Positions 52,492 to 61,793 of a stretch of 64,000 nt of DNA are shown in pieces. The notes under the pieces were generated by a model. The model ran no database searches, was not told where the DNA came from, and worked only from the letters and a program-made list of their open reading frames with translations. The position numbers and the translations under genes are program-made. The stretch lies in NCBI GenBank assembly GCA_963664875.1, contig OY761611.1, forward strand, positions 1,056,001-1,120,000, read 5' to 3'. Every line of letters begins with the position of its first letter. Position 1 is the stretch's first letter. Source of the stretch: Candidatus Kapaibacterium sp. (GTDB taxonomy: Bacteria; Bacteroidota; Ignavibacteria; Kapaibacteriales; UBA2268).

Positions 52492-53067
52492 ATGGCTGTA
52501 TTACCAATATACAACAGTTTTCATCCCATTCTCAAAAACAAAGCTTCCAAAGTAGAAGCGATTGACGATTCGGTCAGGCAATTGGTAGATGATATGTTTG
52601 AGACTCTATACAATATAAGCAACGGGGTCGGACTTGCTGCAAATCAGGTAGGCGACAAACGTGCGGTAATTATTATAGACCTCGGAGTCGGAGAAGATGA
52701 AGAAGAAAAGCTAAGCGAAAAAATAGTAATGATCAATCCGGAAATAATTGACAGCTCCGAAAATACTGATGACGACTACGAAGGTTGCCTTAGCGTGCCC
52801 GAATATTTTGAGAAAGTTGTACGCCCTGCTCAAATCAAAGTAAAATATTACGACTTAGATATGCAAGAGATTGTCCGAGATGTTGATGGTTTCCTTGCCA
52901 GATGCATGCAGCACGAAATCGACCATCTCAATGGTGTACTTTTCTACGAAAGACTTTCCGGTCTAAGGAAGACACTTGGACAAAACAAGTTGAAAAAAAT
53001 CAAAAAGGGCAACATAGTACCTGATTATCCTATGATAAATGCTGACGGGAAACCGCAAAAGCAATAG
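52492..53067 (+). CDS. def: Peptide deformylase
   Basis: GVGLAANQVG, EGCLSVP, QHEIDHLNG. Confidence 0.97.
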   Translation: MAVLPIYNSFHPILKNKASKVEAIDDSVRQLVDDMFETLYNISNGVGLAANQVGDKRAVIIIDLGVGEDEEEKLSEKIVMINPEIIDSSENTDDDYEGCLSVPEYFEKVVRPAQIKVKYYDLDMQEIVRDVDGFLARCMQHEIDHLNGVLFYERLSGLRKTLGQNKLKKIKKGNIVPDYPMINADGKPQKQ

Positions 53068-53096: not shown

Positions 53097-53190
53097 AGCC
53101 AAAGAAGTCAGTTCTCTTTTGGCTCTAAAAATACCCTGAATAAAGTTTGTCGAATCGCTAAACATAGAGGGGGAAAGAACAATCCCCCCT
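53097..53190. terminator. Two hairpins between convergent def and the T9SS array
   Basis: AGCCAAAGAAG...CTCTTTTGGCT and AGGGGGA...TCCCCCCT. Confidence 0.5.
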
Positions 53191-53212: not shown

Positions 53213-53241
53213 ATTAAAAACAAGAAAAAGAGTTTACTCAT
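53213..53241 (-). pseudogene. Stub of a seventh start (MSKLFFLFLI) downstream of the last copy
   Basis: ATGAGTAAACTCTTTTTCTTGTTTTTAAT, 2 nt after the copy-6 stop, nearly identical to the copy-2 start ATGAGTAAATTCTTTTTCTTGTTTTTTAT. Similarity then ends abruptly. Confidence 0.8.
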
Positions 53242-53243
53242 AT

Positions 53244-54557
53244 CTATTCTCCTTTTATGAGTTTATAAGAAATTGCTGTGTCGGCGTAAACTATCTGAAG
53301 AATATACATACCTTTAGCAAGTTTATCCAAAATTAGAGCAATACCTTCTTCATTTGTATTTATCTGTACGAGATAAGTAACTTCTCTTCCGCCTTCATCA
53401 AATAGTTTTATATTTTCCCTAGGAATGTAATATTTGCAAGGAAGAAAAACTTGGTTTGTAGTAGGATTTGGATATAAGACAGTTCCTTCCAAGTCTTCTA
53501 CAATGCTTGAGTCAAAGAAATACTTGCCTGAAGAGATATTGTAAGGGCTGCTACCAATAATAACATCCTTTGTAGAAATGATAGGACGAAACCATCCATA
53601 ATGATAATCATTCTCTTTATCATAGAGAGATATTTTATTACTGATATCAATAATTATAGTTTGCAGACTTAACGTTGTGAGTATGAAGGTTTCTTCCTTA
53701 AAAAAATCGATAGTGCCACCACCGTATTGATTGCCCTTTATGTCAAAAGAGTTATTAATAATAGAATTTTTATCAATACTGAATATAAAAAATCCCATGT
53801 GGTTTTCATCGGTAGAATTGTGTTTAAAGATTCCAGAAATATATAATAAATCAGAATTTGAAGGTGAAAATTTCAAATCTCCTGGAGAACCCCATTTCTC
53901 AGTAGTTTGCGGAACTAATTCATAATCCACAACTAATTTATTCGTTTCAGTTTCCCAAACAAAGAGTCGAGAATGTCCCTCGCTAACAGAAGCAAAATAT
54001 CTGTTATCCGGAGAGATAGCAAAAATATAGAAATAGTTATTGTGTTGATTCTCGGTAGTTAACTCGAATTTTTCAGTAAGTGATTCTGCATCATAAACTC
54101 TAATTTCATGATAATAGCTGTAATTACCAGCATCATTAAATTGATATTCTAAGTTTAAATAAATATTGTTCCTGTCATTATCAACAGCAATGTTTTTGTA
54201 TCGTATTTCCCAACCATCTTTTACAGTAGGCAGAGTTTCTTCCTGAATAATATTCATCTCATTCAGATCTACCTTAACCAGTCGCGCACCTGAAAGCACT
54301 AGAGCAGTTTGCCCGCCTTTCATGAGTTCAAACTTAGAGGCATCAATTTCAGGAATTCGGCGAAGCAACTCACCAGTTTCAGAGTTATGCACAGCTAAGT
54401 CCACATTAGACCCGGCAACGAACTCTTCGTCGTTATTGATAAAATGCAACGAATAGACATTTTTGTCAGGGGTCGGAATTGACCATAAAAACTTCATTTC
54501 ACCTGCCTGAGTGGCAAGTGTTAGGAGAATAAAACACAAGAAAAAGATCTTACTCAT
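53244..54557 (-). CDS. Array copy 6: T9SS cargo, WD40/YVTN-like beta-propeller plus type A CTD
   Basis: Signal peptide TQA-G, propeller-like FAISPDNRYFAS...LFVWETETNKL and LKFSPS, CTD LYPNP...LAKGMYIL...YKLIK. Confidence 0.85.
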   Translation of the reverse strand: MSKIFFLCFILLTLATQAGEMKFLWSIPTPDKNVYSLHFINNDEEFVAGSNVDLAVHNSETGELLRRIPEIDASKFELMKGGQTALVLSGARLVKVDLNEMNIIQEETLPTVKDGWEIRYKNIAVDNDRNNIYLNLEYQFNDAGNYSYYHEIRVYDAESLTEKFELTTENQHNNYFYIFAISPDNRYFASVSEGHSRLFVWETETNKLVVDYELVPQTTEKWGSPGDLKFSPSNSDLLYISGIFKHNSTDENHMGFFIFSIDKNSIINNSFDIKGNQYGGGTIDFFKEETFILTTLSLQTIIIDISNKISLYDKENDYHYGWFRPIISTKDVIIGSSPYNISSGKYFFDSSIVEDLEGTVLYPNPTTNQVFLPCKYYIPRENIKLFDEGGREVTYLVQINTNEEGIALILDKLAKGMYILQIVYADTAISYKLIKGE

Positions 54558-54559
54558 CT

Positions 54560-55870
54560 CTACTCTCCTTTTATGAGTTTATAAGAAATAGCCGTGTCGG
54601 CATAAACTATCTGAAGAATATACATACCTTTAGCAAGTTCATTCAAAATTAGAGTAATACCTTCTTCATTTGTATTTATCTGTACGAGATAAGTAACATC
54701 TCTTCCGCCTTCATCAAATACTTTAATGTTTTCTCTTGGGATGAAATATTCGCAAGGAAGGAAAACCTGATTTGTCGTAGGGTTAGGATATAAGACAGTA
54801 TCTTCCAAGTCTTCCACAATGCTGGAGTCAAAATAGTATCTACCCGAAGATATCCCATCTGGACTACTACCAATAATTAAATCATTTTTGGAAATAATCG
54901 GACGGTACCATCCATAATTATAATCGTGTCTTTCATTATAAATAGTTTGATTTTGATTTACATTGACTATTATAGTACGATAACCTACAGTAATGAGTAT
55001 ATCATTATCATTAGTAAAGAAATCAACAGTTCCTGTCCAAAAAGGTTTTTCTATAAAAAATGTATTGCTTACTATTGAGTTACTATTTATACTAAACATA
55101 AAAAATCCTCTATGAATATCATCGTTAGAATTATGTCTAAATGCTCCTGAAACAAACAATAAATCAGAATCAGAAGGAGAAAATTCTAAGTCTGCAGGAT
55201 TGCCCCATTCGTTTGAGGATTCAGGCATTAAAGGATAATCTACTACTAATTTATTCGTTTCAGTTTCCCAAACAAAGAGTCGAGAATGTCCCTCGCTAAC
55301 AGAAGCAAAATATCTGTTATCAGGAGAGATAGCAAAAATATAGAAATAGTTATTGTGTTGATTCTCGGTGGTTAACTCAAATTTTTCAGTAAGTGATTCT
55401 GCATCATAAACTCGAATTTCATGAAAATAGCTGTAATGACCAGCATCATTAAATTGATATTCTAAGTTCAAATAGATATTGTTTCTGTCATTATCAACAG
55501 CAATGTTTTTGTATTGTATTTCCCAACCATCTTTTACAGTCGGCAGAGTTTCTTCCTGAATAATATTCATCTCATTCAGATCTACCTTAACCAGTCGTGC
55601 ACCTGAAAGTACTAAAGCAGTTTGCCCGCCTTTCATGAGCTCAAACTTAGAGGCATCAAGTTCAGTAAGGCGACGAATCAGTTCACCTGTTTCAGAGTTA
55701 TGCACAGCTAAATCCACATTAGACCCGGCAACAAATTCCTCATCGTTATTGATGAAACGAAGCATAAAAACATTTTTATCCGGCGTAGGCACCGACCATA
55801 AAAACTTCATTTCACCTGCCTGAGTGGCAAGTGTCAGGAGAATAAAAAACAAGAAAATGAATTTACTCAT
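54560..55870 (-). CDS. Array copy 5: T9SS cargo beta-propeller protein
   Basis: Intact 436-aa paralogue with the same architecture. Confidence 0.85.
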   Translation of the reverse strand: MSKFIFLFFILLTLATQAGEMKFLWSVPTPDKNVFMLRFINNDEEFVAGSNVDLAVHNSETGELIRRLTELDASKFELMKGGQTALVLSGARLVKVDLNEMNIIQEETLPTVKDGWEIQYKNIAVDNDRNNIYLNLEYQFNDAGHYSYFHEIRVYDAESLTEKFELTTENQHNNYFYIFAISPDNRYFASVSEGHSRLFVWETETNKLVVDYPLMPESSNEWGNPADLEFSPSDSDLLFVSGAFRHNSNDDIHRGFFMFSINSNSIVSNTFFIEKPFWTGTVDFFTNDNDILITVGYRTIIVNVNQNQTIYNERHDYNYGWYRPIISKNDLIIGSSPDGISSGRYYFDSSIVEDLEDTVLYPNPTTNQVFLPCEYFIPRENIKVFDEGGRDVTYLVQINTNEEGITLILNELAKGMYILQIVYADTAISYKLIKGE

Positions 55871-55872
55871 CT

Positions 55873-57187
55873 CTATTCTCCTTTTATGAGTTTATAAGAA
55901 ATAGCCGTGTCAGCATAAACTATCTGAAGAATATACATACCTTTAGCCAGTTTATCCAGAATTACTGTAATACCTTCTTCATTTGTATTTATCTGAACAA
56001 GATAAGTAACTTCTCTTCCGCCTTTATCAAATACTTTAATGTTTTCTCTTGGGATGAAATATTCGCAAGGAAGGAAAACCTGATTTGTCGTAGGATTTGG
56101 GTATAAGATTGTTTCTTCCAAGTTTTCCACAATGCTTGAGTCGAAGGAATATTTACCAGCTGATAAACTTAATTGACTCGCCCCTATTATTAGATTATCA
56201 CTTTTAGTGATGATTGGATCTGACCAAATATAGTTATCAGAATTAAGTGCGCTAAAAACAATTTTGTTTTCCATAATATCTAAAATTTTAACTATTTCTC
56301 TGCTAGTGTTTAGAATATAATTCTCATTTTTAAAAAATGCAACTGTACTCCATCCTAATTGAGAGTCGTATTGATCAAATGCAGAATTTATTATCTCATT
56401 CTTTTCTATATCAAATATCTTAATACCTTGATGGTTTTCATCCGAAGCGGATTGTTTAAAACGACCAGTTAATAATATTATATTAGCGTTATCTAAAGAA
56501 AACTCTATATCTGCGGGATATCCCCATTCCAAAGTAGTTTGAGGAACTAATTCATAATCCACAACTAATTTATTCGTTTCAGTTTCCCAAACAAAGAGTC
56601 GAGTGTCCCTCACTAACAGAAGCAAAATATCTGTTATCCGGAGAGATAGCAAAAATATAGAAATAGTTATTGTGTTGATTCTCGGTGGTTAACTCAAATT
56701 TTTCAGTAAGTGATTCTGCATCATAAACTCGAATTTCATGATAATAGCTGTAATTACCAGCATCATTAAATTGATATTCTAAGTTTAAATAAATATTGTT
56801 CCTGTCATTATCAACAGCAATGTTTTTGTATTGTATTTCCCAACCATCTTTTACAGTCGGCAGAGTTTCTTCCTGAATAATATTCATCTCATTCAGATCT
56901 ACCTTAACCAGTCGTGCACCTGAAAGTACTAAAGCAGTTTGCCCGCCTTTCATGAGCTCAAACTTAGAGGCATCAAGTTCAGTAAGGCGACGAATCAGTT
57001 CACCTGTTTCAGAGTTATGCACAGCTAAATCCACATTAGACCCGGCAACAAATTCCTCATCGTTATTGATGAAACGAAGCATAAAAACATTTTTATCCGG
57101 TGTAGGCACCGACCATAAAAACTTCATTTCACCTGCCTGAGTGGCAAGTGTCAGGAGAATAAAAAACAAGAAAATGAATTTACTCAT
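55873..57187 (-). pseudogene. Array copy 4, frameshifted by a 2-nt deletion at ~56603
   Basis: GGA CAT TCT CGA CTC (GHSRL) in the sibling copies versus GGA CAC TCG ACT C here. Gene span is 1315 nt, and restoring 2 nt gives 439 codons. Confidence 0.85.
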
Positions 57188-57189
57188 CT

Positions 57190-58497
57190 CTATTCTCCTT
57201 TTATGAGTTTATAAGAAATAGCCGTGTCAGCATAAACTATCTGAAGAATATACATACCTTTAGCCAGTTTATCCAGAATTACTGTAATACCTTCTTCATT
57301 TGTATTTATCTGAACAAGATAAGTAACTTCTCTTCCGCCTTTATCAAATACTTTAATGTTTTCTCTTGGGATGAAATATTCGCAAGGAAGGAAAACCTGA
57401 TTTGTCGTAGGATTTGGGTATAAGACAGTTTCTTCCAAGTCTTCTACTATGCTTGAATCAAAGAAGTATTTACCGGCGGATAATTGATAAGCTGCTCCAA
57501 TTATTATATCTTCTCTCGAAATTATTGGAGAAGGCCAACTATATGTATAATGATGAGCTTCGTTGTAAATAATATTTTTATGATTCAAATCATAAATAAA
57601 ACATAAGTCATTTCTTGTAAGCAACAAATAATTTATATTTTTAAAAAAGTTTATAATGCCCGAGTGTTGAAGACCAGACACATTAAATGTATTGTCAATA
57701 ATTATTTTTTTGTTAATGTCGAAAATAAAAATACCCTGATGGTCTTCATCTTTAGAATTATGTCTAAATGCTCCTGATACATACAATAAATCAGAATCAG
57801 AAGGAGAAAATTCTAAGTCTGCAGGATTGCCCCATTCGTTTGAGGATTCAGGCATTAAAGGATAATCCACTACTAATTTATTAGTTTCAGTTTCCCAAAC
57901 AAAGAGTCGAGAATGTCCTTGAGTAACAGAAGCAAAGTACTTGCAATCCACTGATATTTTAAAGACTGCAAATAAGTATTTACGTTGCTCACCTGTCGTA
58001 AGTTCAAATTCTTCTTTCAGAGTTTCCGCACTATAAACCATGATTTTATGATAGAATGTTTCATTACCTCCATCATTAAAATTTAATCGAGCATCCAAAT
58101 ATATTTTACTTCTTATAGGATCTAAAACTAATGCTCTATAGCTTATAGACCAACCATTCTCATCTGTCTTTAGTGTTTCTTCCTGAATAATATTCATCTC
58201 GTTCAGATCTACCTTAACAAGGCGTGCACCTGAAAGCACTAGAGCAGTTTGCCCGCCTTTCATAAGCTCAAACTTAGAGGCATCAATTTCAGGGAGGCGA
58301 CGAAGCAGTTCACCTGTTTCAGAGTTATGCACAGCCAAGTCCACATTAGATCCGGCAACAAATTCTTCATCGTTATTGATAAAATGCAACGAATAGACAT
58401 TTTTATCAGGGGTCGGAATTGACCATAAAAACTTCATTTCACCTGCCTGAGTGGCAAGTGTCAGGAGAATAAAACACAAGAACAAGATCTTACTCAT
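57190..58497 (-). CDS. Array copy 3: T9SS cargo beta-propeller protein
   Basis: Intact 435-aa paralogue with a unique central block KTDENGWSISY... Confidence 0.85.
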   Translation of the reverse strand: MSKILFLCFILLTLATQAGEMKFLWSIPTPDKNVYSLHFINNDEEFVAGSNVDLAVHNSETGELLRRLPEIDASKFELMKGGQTALVLSGARLVKVDLNEMNIIQEETLKTDENGWSISYRALVLDPIRSKIYLDARLNFNDGGNETFYHKIMVYSAETLKEEFELTTGEQRKYLFAVFKISVDCKYFASVTQGHSRLFVWETETNKLVVDYPLMPESSNEWGNPADLEFSPSDSDLLYVSGAFRHNSKDEDHQGIFIFDINKKIIIDNTFNVSGLQHSGIINFFKNINYLLLTRNDLCFIYDLNHKNIIYNEAHHYTYSWPSPIISREDIIIGAAYQLSAGKYFFDSSIVEDLEETVLYPNPTTNQVFLPCEYFIPRENIKVFDKGGREVTYLVQINTNEEGITVILDKLAKGMYILQIVYADTAISYKLIKGE

Positions 58498-58499
58498 CT

Positions 58500-59804
58500 C
58501 TATTCTCCCTTAATAATTTTGTATGAAATAGCTTCATTAGCATAAACTACCTGAAGAACATACATACCTTTAGCAAGTTCATTCAAAAATAGCGTAATAC
58601 CTTCTTCATTTGTATTTATCTCAACAAAAGAAGTAACTTCTCTTCCGCCCTGATCAAATACTTTTATATTTTCTAGAGGAATGTCATATTCACAAGGAAG
58701 GAATACCTGATTTGTTGTAGGATTTGGATATAACACGGTTCCCTCTAAATCTTCAACGATGCTGGAGTCAAAGAAGTATCTTCCCGAAGATAATCCATCA
58801 GGACTGCTACCAATGATTACATCATTTTTTGAAATTAGCTGACGATACCAACCATACTTAAAATCATGTCTTTCATTGTAGATAGTTTCATTTTGACTGA
58901 CATTCACTATTATTGTAGTATTACTTATAGTCATCAGCATAAAGTTATTATTTGTAAAGAAATCTATTGTACCATTCCAAAATGGATTTACTATATAAAA
59001 ATAATCATCTACTATTTTTGTATTACTTATATTGAAAATAAAAAATCCTCTATGATCATTATTTGAATTTTGTTTAAAAGCACCTGAAACATATAATAAG
59101 TTAGAATTGGAAGGTGAAAAGTTTAAATCATCAGGAGATCCCCATTCATTTGAGGATTCAGGCATTAAAGGATAATCTACTACTAATTTATTAGTTTCAG
59201 TTTCCCAAACACGAAGGTAGGATTTTCCATCATTAACTGCTGCGAAATACTTACAATCTGCCGAAATAGTAAAATAGAAAGGGTCGTCATGTTGATCTTC
59301 TGTTGTAAGTTCAAATTTTTCAGTAAGTGATTCCAAATCGTAAACTCGAATTTCATTTGAGTAACTGAAGTTTCCTGCATCATTAAATTGATATTCTAAA
59401 CTTAAGTATATATTGTTTCTGTTTGTGTCAATTGTTAAATTTTTGTATTGTATTTCCCAACCATCTTTTACAGTAGGCAGAGTTTCTTCCTGAATAATAT
59501 TCATCTCATTCAGATCTACCTTAACAAGGCTTGCTCCTGAAAGTACTAGAGCAGTTTGCCCGCCTTTCATAAGCTCAAACTTAGAGGCATCAATTTCAGG
59601 AATGCTACGAAGCAGTTCACCTGTTTGAGAGTTATGTACAGCTATATCCACATTAGACCCGGCAACAAATTCCTCATCGTTATTGATGAAACGAAGCATA
59701 AAAACATTTTTATCCGGCGTAGGCACCGACCACAAAAACTTCATTTCACCTGCCTGAGTGGCAAGTGTCAGGAGAATAAAAAACAAGAAAAAGAATTTAC
59801 TCAT
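58500..59804 (-). CDS. Array copy 2: T9SS cargo beta-propeller protein
   Basis: Intact 434-aa paralogue with the most divergent CTD. Confidence 0.85.
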   Translation of the reverse strand: MSKFFFLFFILLTLATQAGEMKFLWSVPTPDKNVFMLRFINNDEEFVAGSNVDIAVHNSQTGELLRSIPEIDASKFELMKGGQTALVLSGASLVKVDLNEMNIIQEETLPTVKDGWEIQYKNLTIDTNRNNIYLSLEYQFNDAGNFSYSNEIRVYDLESLTEKFELTTEDQHDDPFYFTISADCKYFAAVNDGKSYLRVWETETNKLVVDYPLMPESSNEWGSPDDLNFSPSNSNLLYVSGAFKQNSNNDHRGFFIFNISNTKIVDDYFYIVNPFWNGTIDFFTNNNFMLMTISNTTIIVNVSQNETIYNERHDFKYGWYRQLISKNDVIIGSSPDGLSSGRYFFDSSIVEDLEGTVLYPNPTTNQVFLPCEYDIPLENIKVFDQGGREVTSFVEINTNEEGITLFLNELAKGMYVLQVVYANEAISYKIIKGE

Positions 59805-59806
59805 CT

Positions 59807-61117
59807 CTATTCTCCTTTTATGAGTTTATAAGAAATAGCCGTGTCAGCGTAAACTAGCTGAAGAATATACATACCTTTAGCAAGTTTGTCCAGAATTAGA
59901 GTAATACCTTCTTCATTCGAATTTATCTGAACGAGATAAGTAACTTCTCTTCCACCTTCATCAAATACTTTGATGTTTTCTCTTGGGATGAAATATTCGC
60001 AAGGAAGGAAAACCTGATTTGTAGTAGGGTTAGGATATAATACAGTTACTTCCAAGTCTTCAACTATACTTGAATCAAAGTAGTATTTACCGGCGGATAA
60101 TTGATAAGCTGCTCCAATTATTATATCTTCTCTCGAAATTATTGGAGAAGGCCAACTATATGTATAATGATGAGCTTCGTTGTAAATAATATTTTTATGA
60201 TTCAAATCATAAATAAAACACAAGTCATTTCTTGTAAGCAACAAATAATTTATATTTTTAAAAAAGTTTATAATGCCCGAGTGTTGAAGACCAGACACAT
60301 TAAATGTATTGTCAATAATTATTTTTTTGTTAATGTCAAAAATAAAAAAACCCATGTGGTCTTAATCGTTAGAATTATGTCTAAATGCTCCTGAAACAAA
60401 CAATAAATCAGAATCAGAAGGAGAAAATTCTATGTCTGCAGGATTGCCCCGTTCGTTTGAGGATTCAGGCATTAAGGGATAATCCACAACTAATTTATTT
60501 GTTTCAGTCTCCCAAACACGAAGGTGAGACTTCCCATCATTAACTGCTGCGAAATACTTACAATCTGCCGAAATAGTAAAATAGAAAGGGTCGTCATGTT
60601 GATCTTCTGTTGTAAGTTCAAATTTTTCGGTAAGTGATTCCAAATCGTAAACTCGAATTTCATTTGAGTAACTGAAGTTTCCTGCATCATTAAATTGATA
60701 TTCTAAACTTAAGTATATATTGTTTCTGTTTGTGTCAATTGTTAAATTTTTGTATTGTATTTCCCAACCATCTTTTACAGTAGGCAGAGTTTCATCCTGA
60801 ATAATATTCATCTCATTCAGATCTACCTTAACAAGGCTTGCTCCTGAAAGTACTAAAGCAGTTTGCCCGCCTTTCATAAGCTCAAACTTAGAGGCATCAA
60901 TTTCAACGAGGCGACGAATCAGTTCACCTGTTTCACTGTTATGTACAGCTATATCCACATTAGACCCGGCAACAAATTCCTCATCGTTATTGATGAAACG
61001 AAGCATAAAAACATTTTTATCCGGCGTAGGCACCGACCATAAAAACTTCATTTCACCCGCCTGTGTGGCAAGTGTCAGGAGAATAAAAAGAGGTAAAAAG
61101 AGTAAAGAAAGTCGCAT
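59807..61117 (-). pseudogene. Array copy 1 (promoter-proximal), interrupted by an in-frame TAA at 60362-60364
   Basis: HNSND*DHMG versus HNSKDEDHQG in copy 3 (GAA to TAA). Both halves are in one frame, 437 codons from ATG 61117. Confidence 0.85.
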
Positions 61118-61204
61118 ATATCTAATCCTGTTTTGCATTATTGATTTATTACATAATAAGCAGGATTTCGTTCATACAGAAGCGGAATTTTTAGATTTAG
61201 ATAT

Positions 61205-61232
61205 AAAAAAAGCTGCCCTATCGGACAGCTTA
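61205..61232 (-). terminator. Terminator after the 2-oxoacid oxidoreductase operon
   Basis: AAAAAAAGCTGCCC-tatc-GGACAGCTT hairpin, giving a U-tail on the minus strand. Confidence 0.75.
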
Positions 61233-61256: not shown

Positions 61257-61793
61257 TTATTTTACAAAGCTCGCACCTACTTCGAAGGCTTGCTTGTTCA
61301 ATGGAATAAGTTTATGGTGGCGTTCAGGAAGTACTTGTTCCAATGCTTTGAAAATAGTTTCAGGAGCAACTGTACTAGTACCTTGGATAAATGCACCAAG
61401 CATAATCATATTCAATACTTTGATGTTTTTCAACTTAACAGCTTCTTCAGAGCCCGGTATAGCATAGATTTTAATATCTGTGCGAGTAGGAGCTTTCAAG
61501 ATATTTGTGCTGTCATAAAACATACATCCGCCCGGTTTGATTCTGCTTTCGAATTTATCAACAGAAGGTTGGTTCAAAGCAACAACCGAATCAAACATAG
61601 AGATATATGGAGAGCTAACTTTTCTATCAGAAACGATAGTAGTTGCGTTAGCAGTACCGCCGCGCATTTCCGGACCGTAAGAAGGCATCCAGCATACTTC
61701 TTTGTCTTCGATCATGCCTGCATAAGCAAGGATCATACCCATAGAAAGTACACCCTGTCCGCCAAATCCTGCAAAAATAGCTTCTTGTGTCAT
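61257..61793 (-). CDS. 2-oxoacid:ferredoxin oxidoreductase gamma subunit
   Basis: AGFGGQGV, PSYGPEMRGGTA, NMIMLGA. Confidence 0.95.
   Translation of the reverse strand: MTQEAIFAGFGGQGVLSMGMILAYAGMIEDKEVCWMPSYGPEMRGGTANATTIVSDRKVSSPYISMFDSVVALNQPSVDKFESRIKPGGCMFYDSTNILKAPTRTDIKIYAIPGSEEAVKLKNIKVLNMIMLGAFIQGTSTVAPETIFKALEQVLPERHHKLIPLNKQAFEVGASFVK

Follow-up and report, generated by a model that had tools for sequence, protein, structure and literature searches.

How can six adjacent genes each resemble one sister gene in one of their parts and a different sister in the next? This question is raised by a tandem array in the genome of Candidatus Kapaibacterium sp. (assembly GCA_963664875.1), which we analysed within a window of 64,000 nucleotides (nt) of contig OY761611.1 (positions 1,056,001 to 1,120,000 of the forward strand; positions below are counted from the first letter of the window unless a contig is named). 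Six head-to-tail paralogs of ~1.31 kb occupy positions 53244-61138 on the minus strand. Each copy codes for a predicted signal peptide, followed by a seven-bladed WD40-like beta-propeller and by a type A sorting domain of the type IX secretion system (T9SS), the latter forming the C-terminal domain (CTD). We numbered the copies from the promoter side, from copy 1 (59807-61138) to copy 6 (53244-54557). A preliminary description of the array had presented the copies as mosaics of variable blocks. We consider it highly probable that the array is a single transcription unit of six paralogs, two of them broken, which has become mosaic through homologous recombination between misaligned copies of these T9SS propeller genes.

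Variable blocks group the six copies in conflicting ways

We examined the translations and alignments of the six copies and found all the groupings reported for blocks A to D and the CTD. In block A, SIPTPDKNVYSLHF is present in copies 3 and 6, and SVPTPDKNVFMLRF in copies 1, 2, 4 and 5. Block B reads NIAVDNDR...FAISPDNRY in copies 4, 5 and 6 and NLTIDTNR...TISADCKY in copies 1 and 2, and is unique in copy 3; block C reads ELVPQTT in copies 4 and 6 and PLMPESSNE in copies 1, 2, 3 and 5. Exactly 88 residues of block D (FIFDINKK...LSAGKY) are identical in copies 1 and 3, while copies 2 and 5 carry PFW(N/T)GT alleles and the alleles of copies 4 and 6 are unique. The CTDs of copies 3 and 4 are identical over their final 236 nt. 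Over whole genes, DNA identity between copies is 74.5-85.0%; in 60-nt windows it lies between 52% and 100%, and which copy is nearest to a given one changes along the gene.

The pairwise homoplasy index (PHI), computed on 282 informative sites, was 0.218 against a permutation mean of 0.427 (sd 0.006), and 0 of 2000 permutations gave a value as low. In a GENECONV-like test, we searched all pairs for runs of consecutive polymorphic sites common to two copies and compared them with 2000 site permutations: the observed shared runs span 39-93 polymorphic sites, the permutation maximum being 27. Ten short runs starting at alignment column 1 (35-41 columns) were dropped, since they reflect a 27-column leader gap common to copies 2-6. 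Blind segmentation of the 547 variable columns, with Fitch lengths and all 105 six-taxon topologies, reduced the parsimony length from 855 with one tree to 756 with four free breakpoints; in 100 site permutations, the four-breakpoint length had a mean of 839 and a minimum of 832. The breakpoints found in this way (alignment 288/297, 684/685, 773/774 and 1086/1089) lie close to the blocks of the preliminary description. When the 105 topologies were submitted to approximately unbiased (AU) tests on five segments, 5, 8, 28, 17 and 18 of them were unrejected; none was common to all five segments, and four segment pairs had no common unrejected topology at all. Block-wise phylogenies, the check suggested at the outset, are therefore incongruent, and no topology of the 105 fits the five segments.

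Synonymous divergence (dS) between copies 1 and 3 is 2.0 in block B, 0.08 in block C and 0.04 in block D; between copies 1 and 2 it is 0.08 in block B and 2.0 in block D. Hence, the synonymous divergence of one gene pair varies 25- to 50-fold between blocks, and since it ranges from 0.04 to 2.0 within a single pair, differential constraint cannot explain the pattern. The Hudson-Kaplan minimum number of recombination events (Rm) is 52, a value unfit as an event count because block D is synonymously saturated and recurrent mutation breaks the infinite-sites assumption. The incongruent block trees, PHI, the blind segmentation, the dS contrasts and the at least eight pairwise tracts described below all bear out the proposal that recombination between the copies has been recurrent.

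Exchange tracts and their junctions

We delimited at least eight distinct pairwise tracts, with lengths of 68-624 nt (all on the minus strand). The longest, at 56802-57425, starts in the CTD of copy 3, crosses the 2-nt spacer and covers ~386 nt at the 5' end of copy 4. It is repeated with one mismatch at 55485-56108, that is, over the CTD of copy 4, the spacer and the 5' part of copy 5, one unit downstream. Conversion or crossing-over between copies out of register by one unit would yield such a 624-nt tract, and we take it as a conversion or duplication unit across the stop/start boundary, the sole one of its kind seen among the six copies. In alignment columns, the shared runs of the copies concerned are 1109-1344 for copies 3 and 4, and 115-413 for copies 4 and 5 (from column 1 with one mismatch).

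Copy 1 has tracts in common with three of its sisters. Its block B tract (60534-60793) equals 59227-59486 of copy 2 with one mismatch (alignment 346-608), and its block D tract (60082-60337; dS 0.04) differs from 57465-57720 of copy 3 at one of 265 alignment columns (805-1069). In addition, 68 nt at 60365-60432 are identical to 55121-55188 of copy 5 (alignment 710-777; 39 polymorphic sites, 0 of 2000 permutations), which confirms a copy-5-like micro-patch noticed earlier. Another micro-patch, HMGFF as in copy 6, had to be abandoned as an event of its own: the same junction of HMGFF with FIFDINKK is found in the first copy (G1a) of an array in a congener (G001), so that no separate event is needed, and the junction is probably ancestral to that block D allele. 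The whole block combination of copy 1 is also that of the first gene of G001 and of a contig from a related organism in a wastewater metagenome (run X7); copy 3 therefore probably obtained its block D from copy 1.

Further tracts connect the downstream copies. Copy 3 has 85 nt (57783-57867) identical to 55156-55240 of copy 5 (alignment 658-742). The region 56613-56831 of copy 4 holds two separate copy 6 tracts, with 56732-56831 equal to 54102-54201 and 56613-56686 equal to 53983-54056 (alignment 384-483 and 529-602). Blocks C and D of copy 4 resemble neither neighbour, which places this gene beyond the reach of a single unequal crossover; it must have taken several independent events. Only short stretches are invariant across the six copies: seven reach at least 14 nt, the longest measures 21 nt, and five of the seven lie within alignment 82-344. 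Pairwise identity in the conserved parts runs much longer than this six-copy identity.

We propose that copies which pair out of register are recombined by a general homologous pathway of the RecA type, through gene conversion, repeated unequal crossing-over or both. The exchanges would be seeded in well-conserved sequence, namely in the leader and blades 1-2, in the VWETETNKLVVDY linker and in the CTD, and short to medium tracts (68-624 nt) have been copied between paralogs many times. Two effects follow: concerted evolution keeps the leader, blades 1-2 and the CTD nearly uniform within the genome, and old, highly diverged alleles of blades 3-7 are re-assorted. As such, this mechanism is ordinary and has been described previously; the modular part of the reading is partly supported, and any adaptive benefit would be hypothetical.

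Small differences were seen between the assembly and contigs of public sequencing runs. At position 55322, X1 and X2 contigs read C, not A, the sole difference of copy 5 from copies 4 and 6 there; an X6 contig shows the copy 4/5 state at two copy 6-specific positions (54057 and 54066). These could be mis-placed paralogous contigs or small between-sample conversion differences.

Two of the six copies are broken

Two lesions had gone unnoticed in the preliminary description. The frame of copy 1 is interrupted by a TAA at 60362-60364, a codon that is GAA in copy 3, and copy 4 (55873-57187) lacks 2 nt between 56604 and 56603, which shifts its frame. In three public runs (X1, X2 and X6, belonging to two studies), contigs cover the TAA site with the same letters throughout; the X7 contig has C at plus-strand position 60364, hence GAA instead of TAA. 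No insertion or deletion in the array was reported among the contigs of any run, the contig depth available for the copy 4 deletion site being that of its surrounding bin, in X1 and X2. A perfect small hairpin, CGAG-GGACATT-CTCG, is present in copies 6 (53968-53982) and 5 (55281-55295), and the 2-nt deletion of copy 4 falls in the loop of this element.

The copies encode predicted T9SS-exported propellers

Three of the six copies (2, 3 and 6) were scanned for sorting domains, and all three matched PF18962 (Por_Secre_tail; 32.7-36.4 bits against a cut-off of 27) and TIGR04183 (36.3-37.7 bits against a cut-off of 23). The hydrophobic leader, read by eye as MSKFFFLFFILLTLATQA before GE, corresponds to a helix at residues 3-13 of the structural model. 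Right after it, at residues ~18-26 of every copy, stands the motif AGEMKFLWS, which is kept in both subfamilies of this genome (~34% identical) and in congeners; its conservation suggests a possible conserved mature N-terminus or processing site. The same genome encodes the translocon protein SprA in a 2324-aa open frame (TIGR04189, 786 bits against a cut-off of 200).

We modelled copy 2 with AlphaFold on a 22-sequence family alignment. The model (predicted local distance difference test score, pLDDT, 84.2; predicted template modelling score, pTM, 0.74) has 28 strands in residues 20-344, arranged in seven groups of four and followed by the CTD. In Foldseek searches against the PDB, the top matches were all seven-bladed WD40 propellers, with E-values of about 1e-11 to 1e-12. 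Among them were E. coli YncE and WDR5, the latter with a template modelling (TM) score, normalised by target length, of about 0.77 (E about 1e-11). The likeness to WDR5 and YncE lies in the seven-bladed fold with its 28 strands in seven groups; sequence identity is 10-14%, the array protein is predicted to be secreted and bears a T9SS CTD, and no function can be transferred. Pfam models of the WD40 type stayed far under their cut-offs (best WD40_WDHD1_1st, 29.4 bits against 109.9; PF00400, 14.2 against 27), and the ESM Atlas returned generic propeller clusters alone, with scores of 0.81-0.84, under the lead threshold of 0.9. Since a predicted signal peptide, a propeller and a type A CTD are combined in one protein, the products most likely reach the cell surface, where they would be displayed or from which they would be released, presumably as binding modules.

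Blades 3-7 hold most of the diversity, blade 6 being the most variable; there is little variation in the leader, in blades 1-2 or in the CTD. We confronted the tracts with the blades, assigned here by strand order in the predicted model. The suggestion that new propellers are assembled from blade modules holds in part. Two tracts alone match module borders: that of block D, at residues 258-344, coincides with strand groups 6 and 7, and that of the CTD spans residues 357-434. On the other side, 11 of the 16 listed internal tract ends fall inside strand groups (residues 119, 129, 149, 152, 168, 182, 191, 193, 227, 238 and 248), so most tract ends lie within blades, and the 624-nt tract ignores gene borders. 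The blind breakpoints give a similar picture: they correspond to residues ~87-90, 218, 247 and 350, of which the last alone stands at a domain border and the other three are inside strand groups.

Mosaic relatives within the genome and in congeners

The family is rare and lineage-restricted. One search retrieved 51 cluster representatives at E ≤ 1e-10 out of 1.84 billion; a word-indexed search retrieved 7 proteins at E ≤ 1e-20, of which 3 are from the present genome. Among 41 related genomes, 7 contain the family, the present one included, and a scan of a metagenome contig collection with the close-family alignment yielded no relative among 593 pattern matches.

The present genome holds a second array, with five paralogs separated by 1-nt spacers (C1:2199405-2206032) and with ~34% protein identity to the first, and a dispersed singleton (1365615-1366946) located 830 kb from this second array. 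The second array and the singleton are mutually mosaic: 60-nt windows of 100% identity occur between the singleton and array members, and PHI on the combined set was matched by 0 of 1000 permutations. A CTD relic was also seen in an intergenic region at G000:C1:3802526-3802620 (plus strand), where the last ~32 codons of the family CTD are preserved at 88% identity to copy 5; the part upstream of them is degraded and lies in another frame. Loose contig ends at 54579 and 54648, considered as alternative ends of the array, map to this decayed relic (G000:C1:3802521-3802650; X1, X2 and X6 contigs) and were rejected.

The comparison of arrangements between strains covers one congener array (G001), one protein of another assembly (P0003) and short contigs. 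In G001, a three-gene array stands in another context, between purB and smc. Its block D alleles cluster with copies 1 and 3 (support 96) and with copy 4 (support 98), which makes these alleles older than the separation of the species. In block A, the alleles of each genome group together (support 100). The propeller of the middle gene (L026:7986-9230, minus strand) is too diverged to align well, while its CTD is identical to that of its neighbour at 226 of 237 nt, the near-identity beginning at YPNPTTNQ. From the diverged propeller and near-identical CTD it follows that the sorting domain was homogenised independently of the passenger domain. P0003 combines block B of the copy 4/5/6 type with block D of the copy 1/3 type, a combination absent from the present genome; once P0003 is counted, B(12) and B(456) are each seen with both D(13) and D(25).

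Layout of the array and its flanks

The start-to-start distance of the six copies is 1307-1317 nt and the spacers between them measure 2 nt, the stop, spacer and start reading TAG-AG-ATG (...AAAGGAGAATAG AG ATG). Copy 1 (59807-61138) combines blocks A(1245), B(12), C(1235) and D(13) and is broken by its in-frame TAA. The preliminary description had begun it at the ATG at 61117, which we also take as the likely start because the matching Met begins P0003, a related first-copy protein. Copy 2 (58500-59804, minus strand, as are all copies) is intact with 434 aa and has the most divergent CTD of the array, of a congener-like type. Copy 3 (57190-58497; 435 aa) is intact, with a unique block B, the block D of copy 1 and the CTD of copy 4; the frame-shifted copy 4 (55873-57187) has a block D that is unique in the array and related to the congener copy G1c. 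Copies 5 (54560-55870; 436 aa) and 6 (53244-54557; 437 aa) are intact. The edge of the tandem duplication is marked by a remnant just behind the copy 6 stop codon, which represents the initial ~28 nt of a seventh unit (ATGAGTAAACTC...; 53213-53241, minus strand).

The anatomy points to one operon built by tandem duplication, given a terminator upstream, the 2-nt spacers and a GGAG supplied by the end of each preceding copy. The intrinsic-terminator-like hairpin with a T run at 61210-61231 (minus strand) closes the 2-oxoacid:ferredoxin oxidoreductase genes that lie upstream; hence, a separate promoter is required for the array, and it is predicted within 61139-61209. Downstream, at 53168-53190 (minus strand), lies a terminator-like G+C-rich hairpin with a weak T run, and a peptide deformylase gene converges on the array from this side. 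The last three codons (K-G-E) of each copy form GGAG just before the next start: across 53244-59806, the final codons AAA GGA GAA TAG of each gene place this Shine-Dalgarno (SD)-like GGAG ~8 nt ahead of the ATG that follows, so that each copy may be translated independently of the preceding one.

The array stands at a synteny break. The flanking deformylase and oxidoreductase gamma-subunit genes (52492-53067 and 61257-61793) are 39-155 kb apart in three congeners and on separate contigs in a fourth, and purB and smc, which flank the arrays of G001 and of another genome (G004), are 1.19 Mb apart in the present genome. Arrays of this propeller family may thus be markers or causes of rearrangement points.

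Alternative explanations

The alternation of conserved and variable segments along the gene could, taken by itself, be the product of duplication and drift under uneven constraint, without recombination. This explanation is next to impossible: blocks of the same gene pair differ 25- to 50-fold in dS, different blocks yield strongly supported conflicting groupings, and all four combinations of the two block A and two block C alleles exist within the array (copies 1, 4, 3 and 6). It is refuted by PHI, the AU tests, the dS contrasts and the blind segmentation, and the earlier statement that duplication followed by drift cannot produce the block groupings is thereby upheld. A mosaic could also be created by the assembly, through chimeric joins of near-identical repeats or collapsed strains; the perfect repeats, of 236-624 nt, are longer than the k-mer size and come close to the length of short reads, and public contigs break inside the array. 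We nevertheless regard an artefact as extremely improbable. The genome is a single 3.83-Mb contig scored 100% complete, and block sharing is a property of the sequences, not of their order. Moreover, Logan contig pieces were at least 99% alike, without insertions or deletions, in 61 of 62 cases for X1, 57 of 60 for X2 and 43 of 45 for X6; a 369-nt contig of the X7 wastewater metagenome, with 13 differences, bridges the B/C/D junctions of copy 1; and the same mosaic behaviour is displayed by the second array, G001 and G004. The X2 word depth gives a weak hint in the same direction, 36.8 in the block shared by copies 1 and 3 against 17.6-22.8 in unique sequence, although contig depth is not copy number and X6 was noisy and inconsistent.

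If recombination is accepted, its partners could have come mainly from other strains, imported by transformation or another transfer and integrated by homology at the conserved stretches. The block D allele of copies 1 and 3 is found in G001 and P0003 as well, that of copy 4 is related to the third copy of G001, the arrays have differing genomic contexts among congeners, and the published model for the lpl genes of Staphylococcus aureus permits such a route (PMC2568036). The youngest tracts, however, are identical or one base apart within the genome (236, 265, 263 and 624 nt), whereas the nearest foreign alleles are several percent off (13 differences in 369 nt for X7; the G001 alleles), and the youngest events are therefore intragenomic. 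Import as the main source of the mosaic is thus unlikely, while it may have been the source of the unique alleles (block B of copy 3, block D of copies 4 and 6). We judge very unlikely a programmed, cassette-type variation, in which copy 1 would be the expression site and the downstream copies, broken ones included, a reservoir, with frequent shuffling of a surface protein against phages or predators or for kin recognition. Such a scheme would accommodate the alternation of variable blocks with conserved stretches, the perfect tracts that broken copies still have in common with intact ones, the different block B of P0003, itself the first copy of a related array, and the retention of old block D alleles across species. 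It conflicts with the presence in all six copies of an ATG, a leader and an SD-like GGAG of their own: none is a silent 5'-truncated cassette, the two damaged ones being full-length, and the promoter-proximal copy 1 is itself broken by its TAA, also in X1, X2 and X6. Nor was any alternative joint reported in the public runs beyond a weak one (53213 to 55497, with a side of 21 letters, in X2 only), which is below the reliability bound and was disregarded; the loose ends at 54579 and 54648 (4 of the 11 listed rows) map to the other locus, the remaining 7 being unplaced. No recombinase or special element was seen in the immediate flanks examined (FtsW, MurD, Def and KorGBA). An invertible promoter and a diversity-generating retroelement were also considered; the adenine-targeted mutagenesis of the latter appears a poor fit, the tracts being plain copy-to-copy identities.

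Several points weigh against recombination between misaligned copies of a secreted-propeller operon as we present it. The AU segments were picked after inspection of the data, a weakness from which PHI and the blind segmentation are free. Applied to the 4-copy array of G004, PHI gave 0 for both the observed and the permuted value, this array having just three distinct sequences. The public-run contigs reach at most 734 nt inside the array and bridge no two copies, so that they bear neither on copy order and number, which are those of the assembly, nor on population variants; uncovered parts in X2, X6 and X7 were left out of the interpretation, and runs X1-X6 may include the source sample of the genome. 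Gene conversion and repeated unequal crossing-over cannot be separated in one genome. That the array forms a single transcription unit, and that its products are secreted and displayed on the surface, we infer from sequence; the GldM model TIGR03517 had no match in the genome, but it had none in any control genome either. Pairwise dN/dS values are 0.03-0.8, mostly 0.1-0.45, with no pairwise sign of positive selection on the variable blocks. Finally, two of the six copies are broken, and neutral turnover fits as well as any adaptive scheme.

Comparison with known systems and significance

In Neisseria pilE/pilS, Borrelia vlsE and Mycoplasma genitalium MgPa, one expressed gene is accompanied by silent, promoterless, truncated cassettes. 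The propeller array resembles these systems in that segmental gene conversion, as we propose it here, re-assorts variable segments flanked by conserved sequence. It differs from them in that all copies are complete genes with a start, a leader and a ribosome-binding site, and in that the promoter-proximal copy is broken.

Nearest to the array among described systems is the lpl cluster of S. aureus. For these tandem paralogs, Tsuru and Kobayashi (2008; PMC2568036) describe a conserved intragenic region as the recombination site and incongruent trees for the two variable regions of one open reading frame (ORF); the conserved unit spans the 3' region, the spacer and the 5' region of adjacent ORFs (PMC2568036). 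Both loci are thus tandem paralogs for exported proteins (export being predicted here), with conserved stretches flanked by variable regions and incongruent trees within ORFs, and the 3'-spacer-5' unit of lpl has its counterpart in the 624-nt repeat. In contrast to the two variable regions of lpl, four to five blocks re-assort in the propeller array; its products are T9SS beta-propellers and not lipoproteins, its genes are separated by 2-nt spacers and would form one operon, a dispersed singleton also takes part in the present genome, and its host is an environmental Kapabacteria-type bacterium and not a pathogen. Among T9SS cargo, the adhesin domains of Porphyromonas gingivalis Kgp, RgpA and HagA have been reported to undergo domain rearrangement and allelic exchange, with mosaic variants unrelated to the genome phylogeny (PMC5266723). 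There too, T9SS surface proteins are diversified by homologous recombination. According to that report, however, most exchange takes place from strain to strain and among dispersed genes that carry repeated adhesin domains, whereas the propeller array exchanges between tandem whole-gene paralogs of one genome, with a propeller fold. In a literature search on gene conversion, T9SS propellers and Kapabacteria secretion, titles and abstract beginnings contained no description of this family or of such arrays.

The locus thus provides a statistically strong case of recombination between paralogs in an uncultured, Kapabacteria-type lineage, in a closed genome with three interacting loci. For annotation, it implies that arrays of this kind are unfit for a single gene tree or for simple orthology. 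It also shows that, beyond the well-studied oral and gliding Bacteroidota, predicted T9SS cargo can evolve in two ways at once, in its leader and CTD by concerted evolution and in its putative binding part by the reshuffling of old alleles. A broader possibility, which we hold to be quite unlikely, is a standing combinatorial diversification: the two arrays and the singleton, with their conserved anchors, selected old alleles of blades 3-7 and damaged copies as a reservoir, would maintain many combinations coexisting in the population, against phages or predators or for partner recognition. If true, this would be the functional equivalent of the antigenic variation of pathogens in a free-living wastewater bacterium; and if the shuffling is ongoing, the locus would be a model of surface variation without a host immune system.

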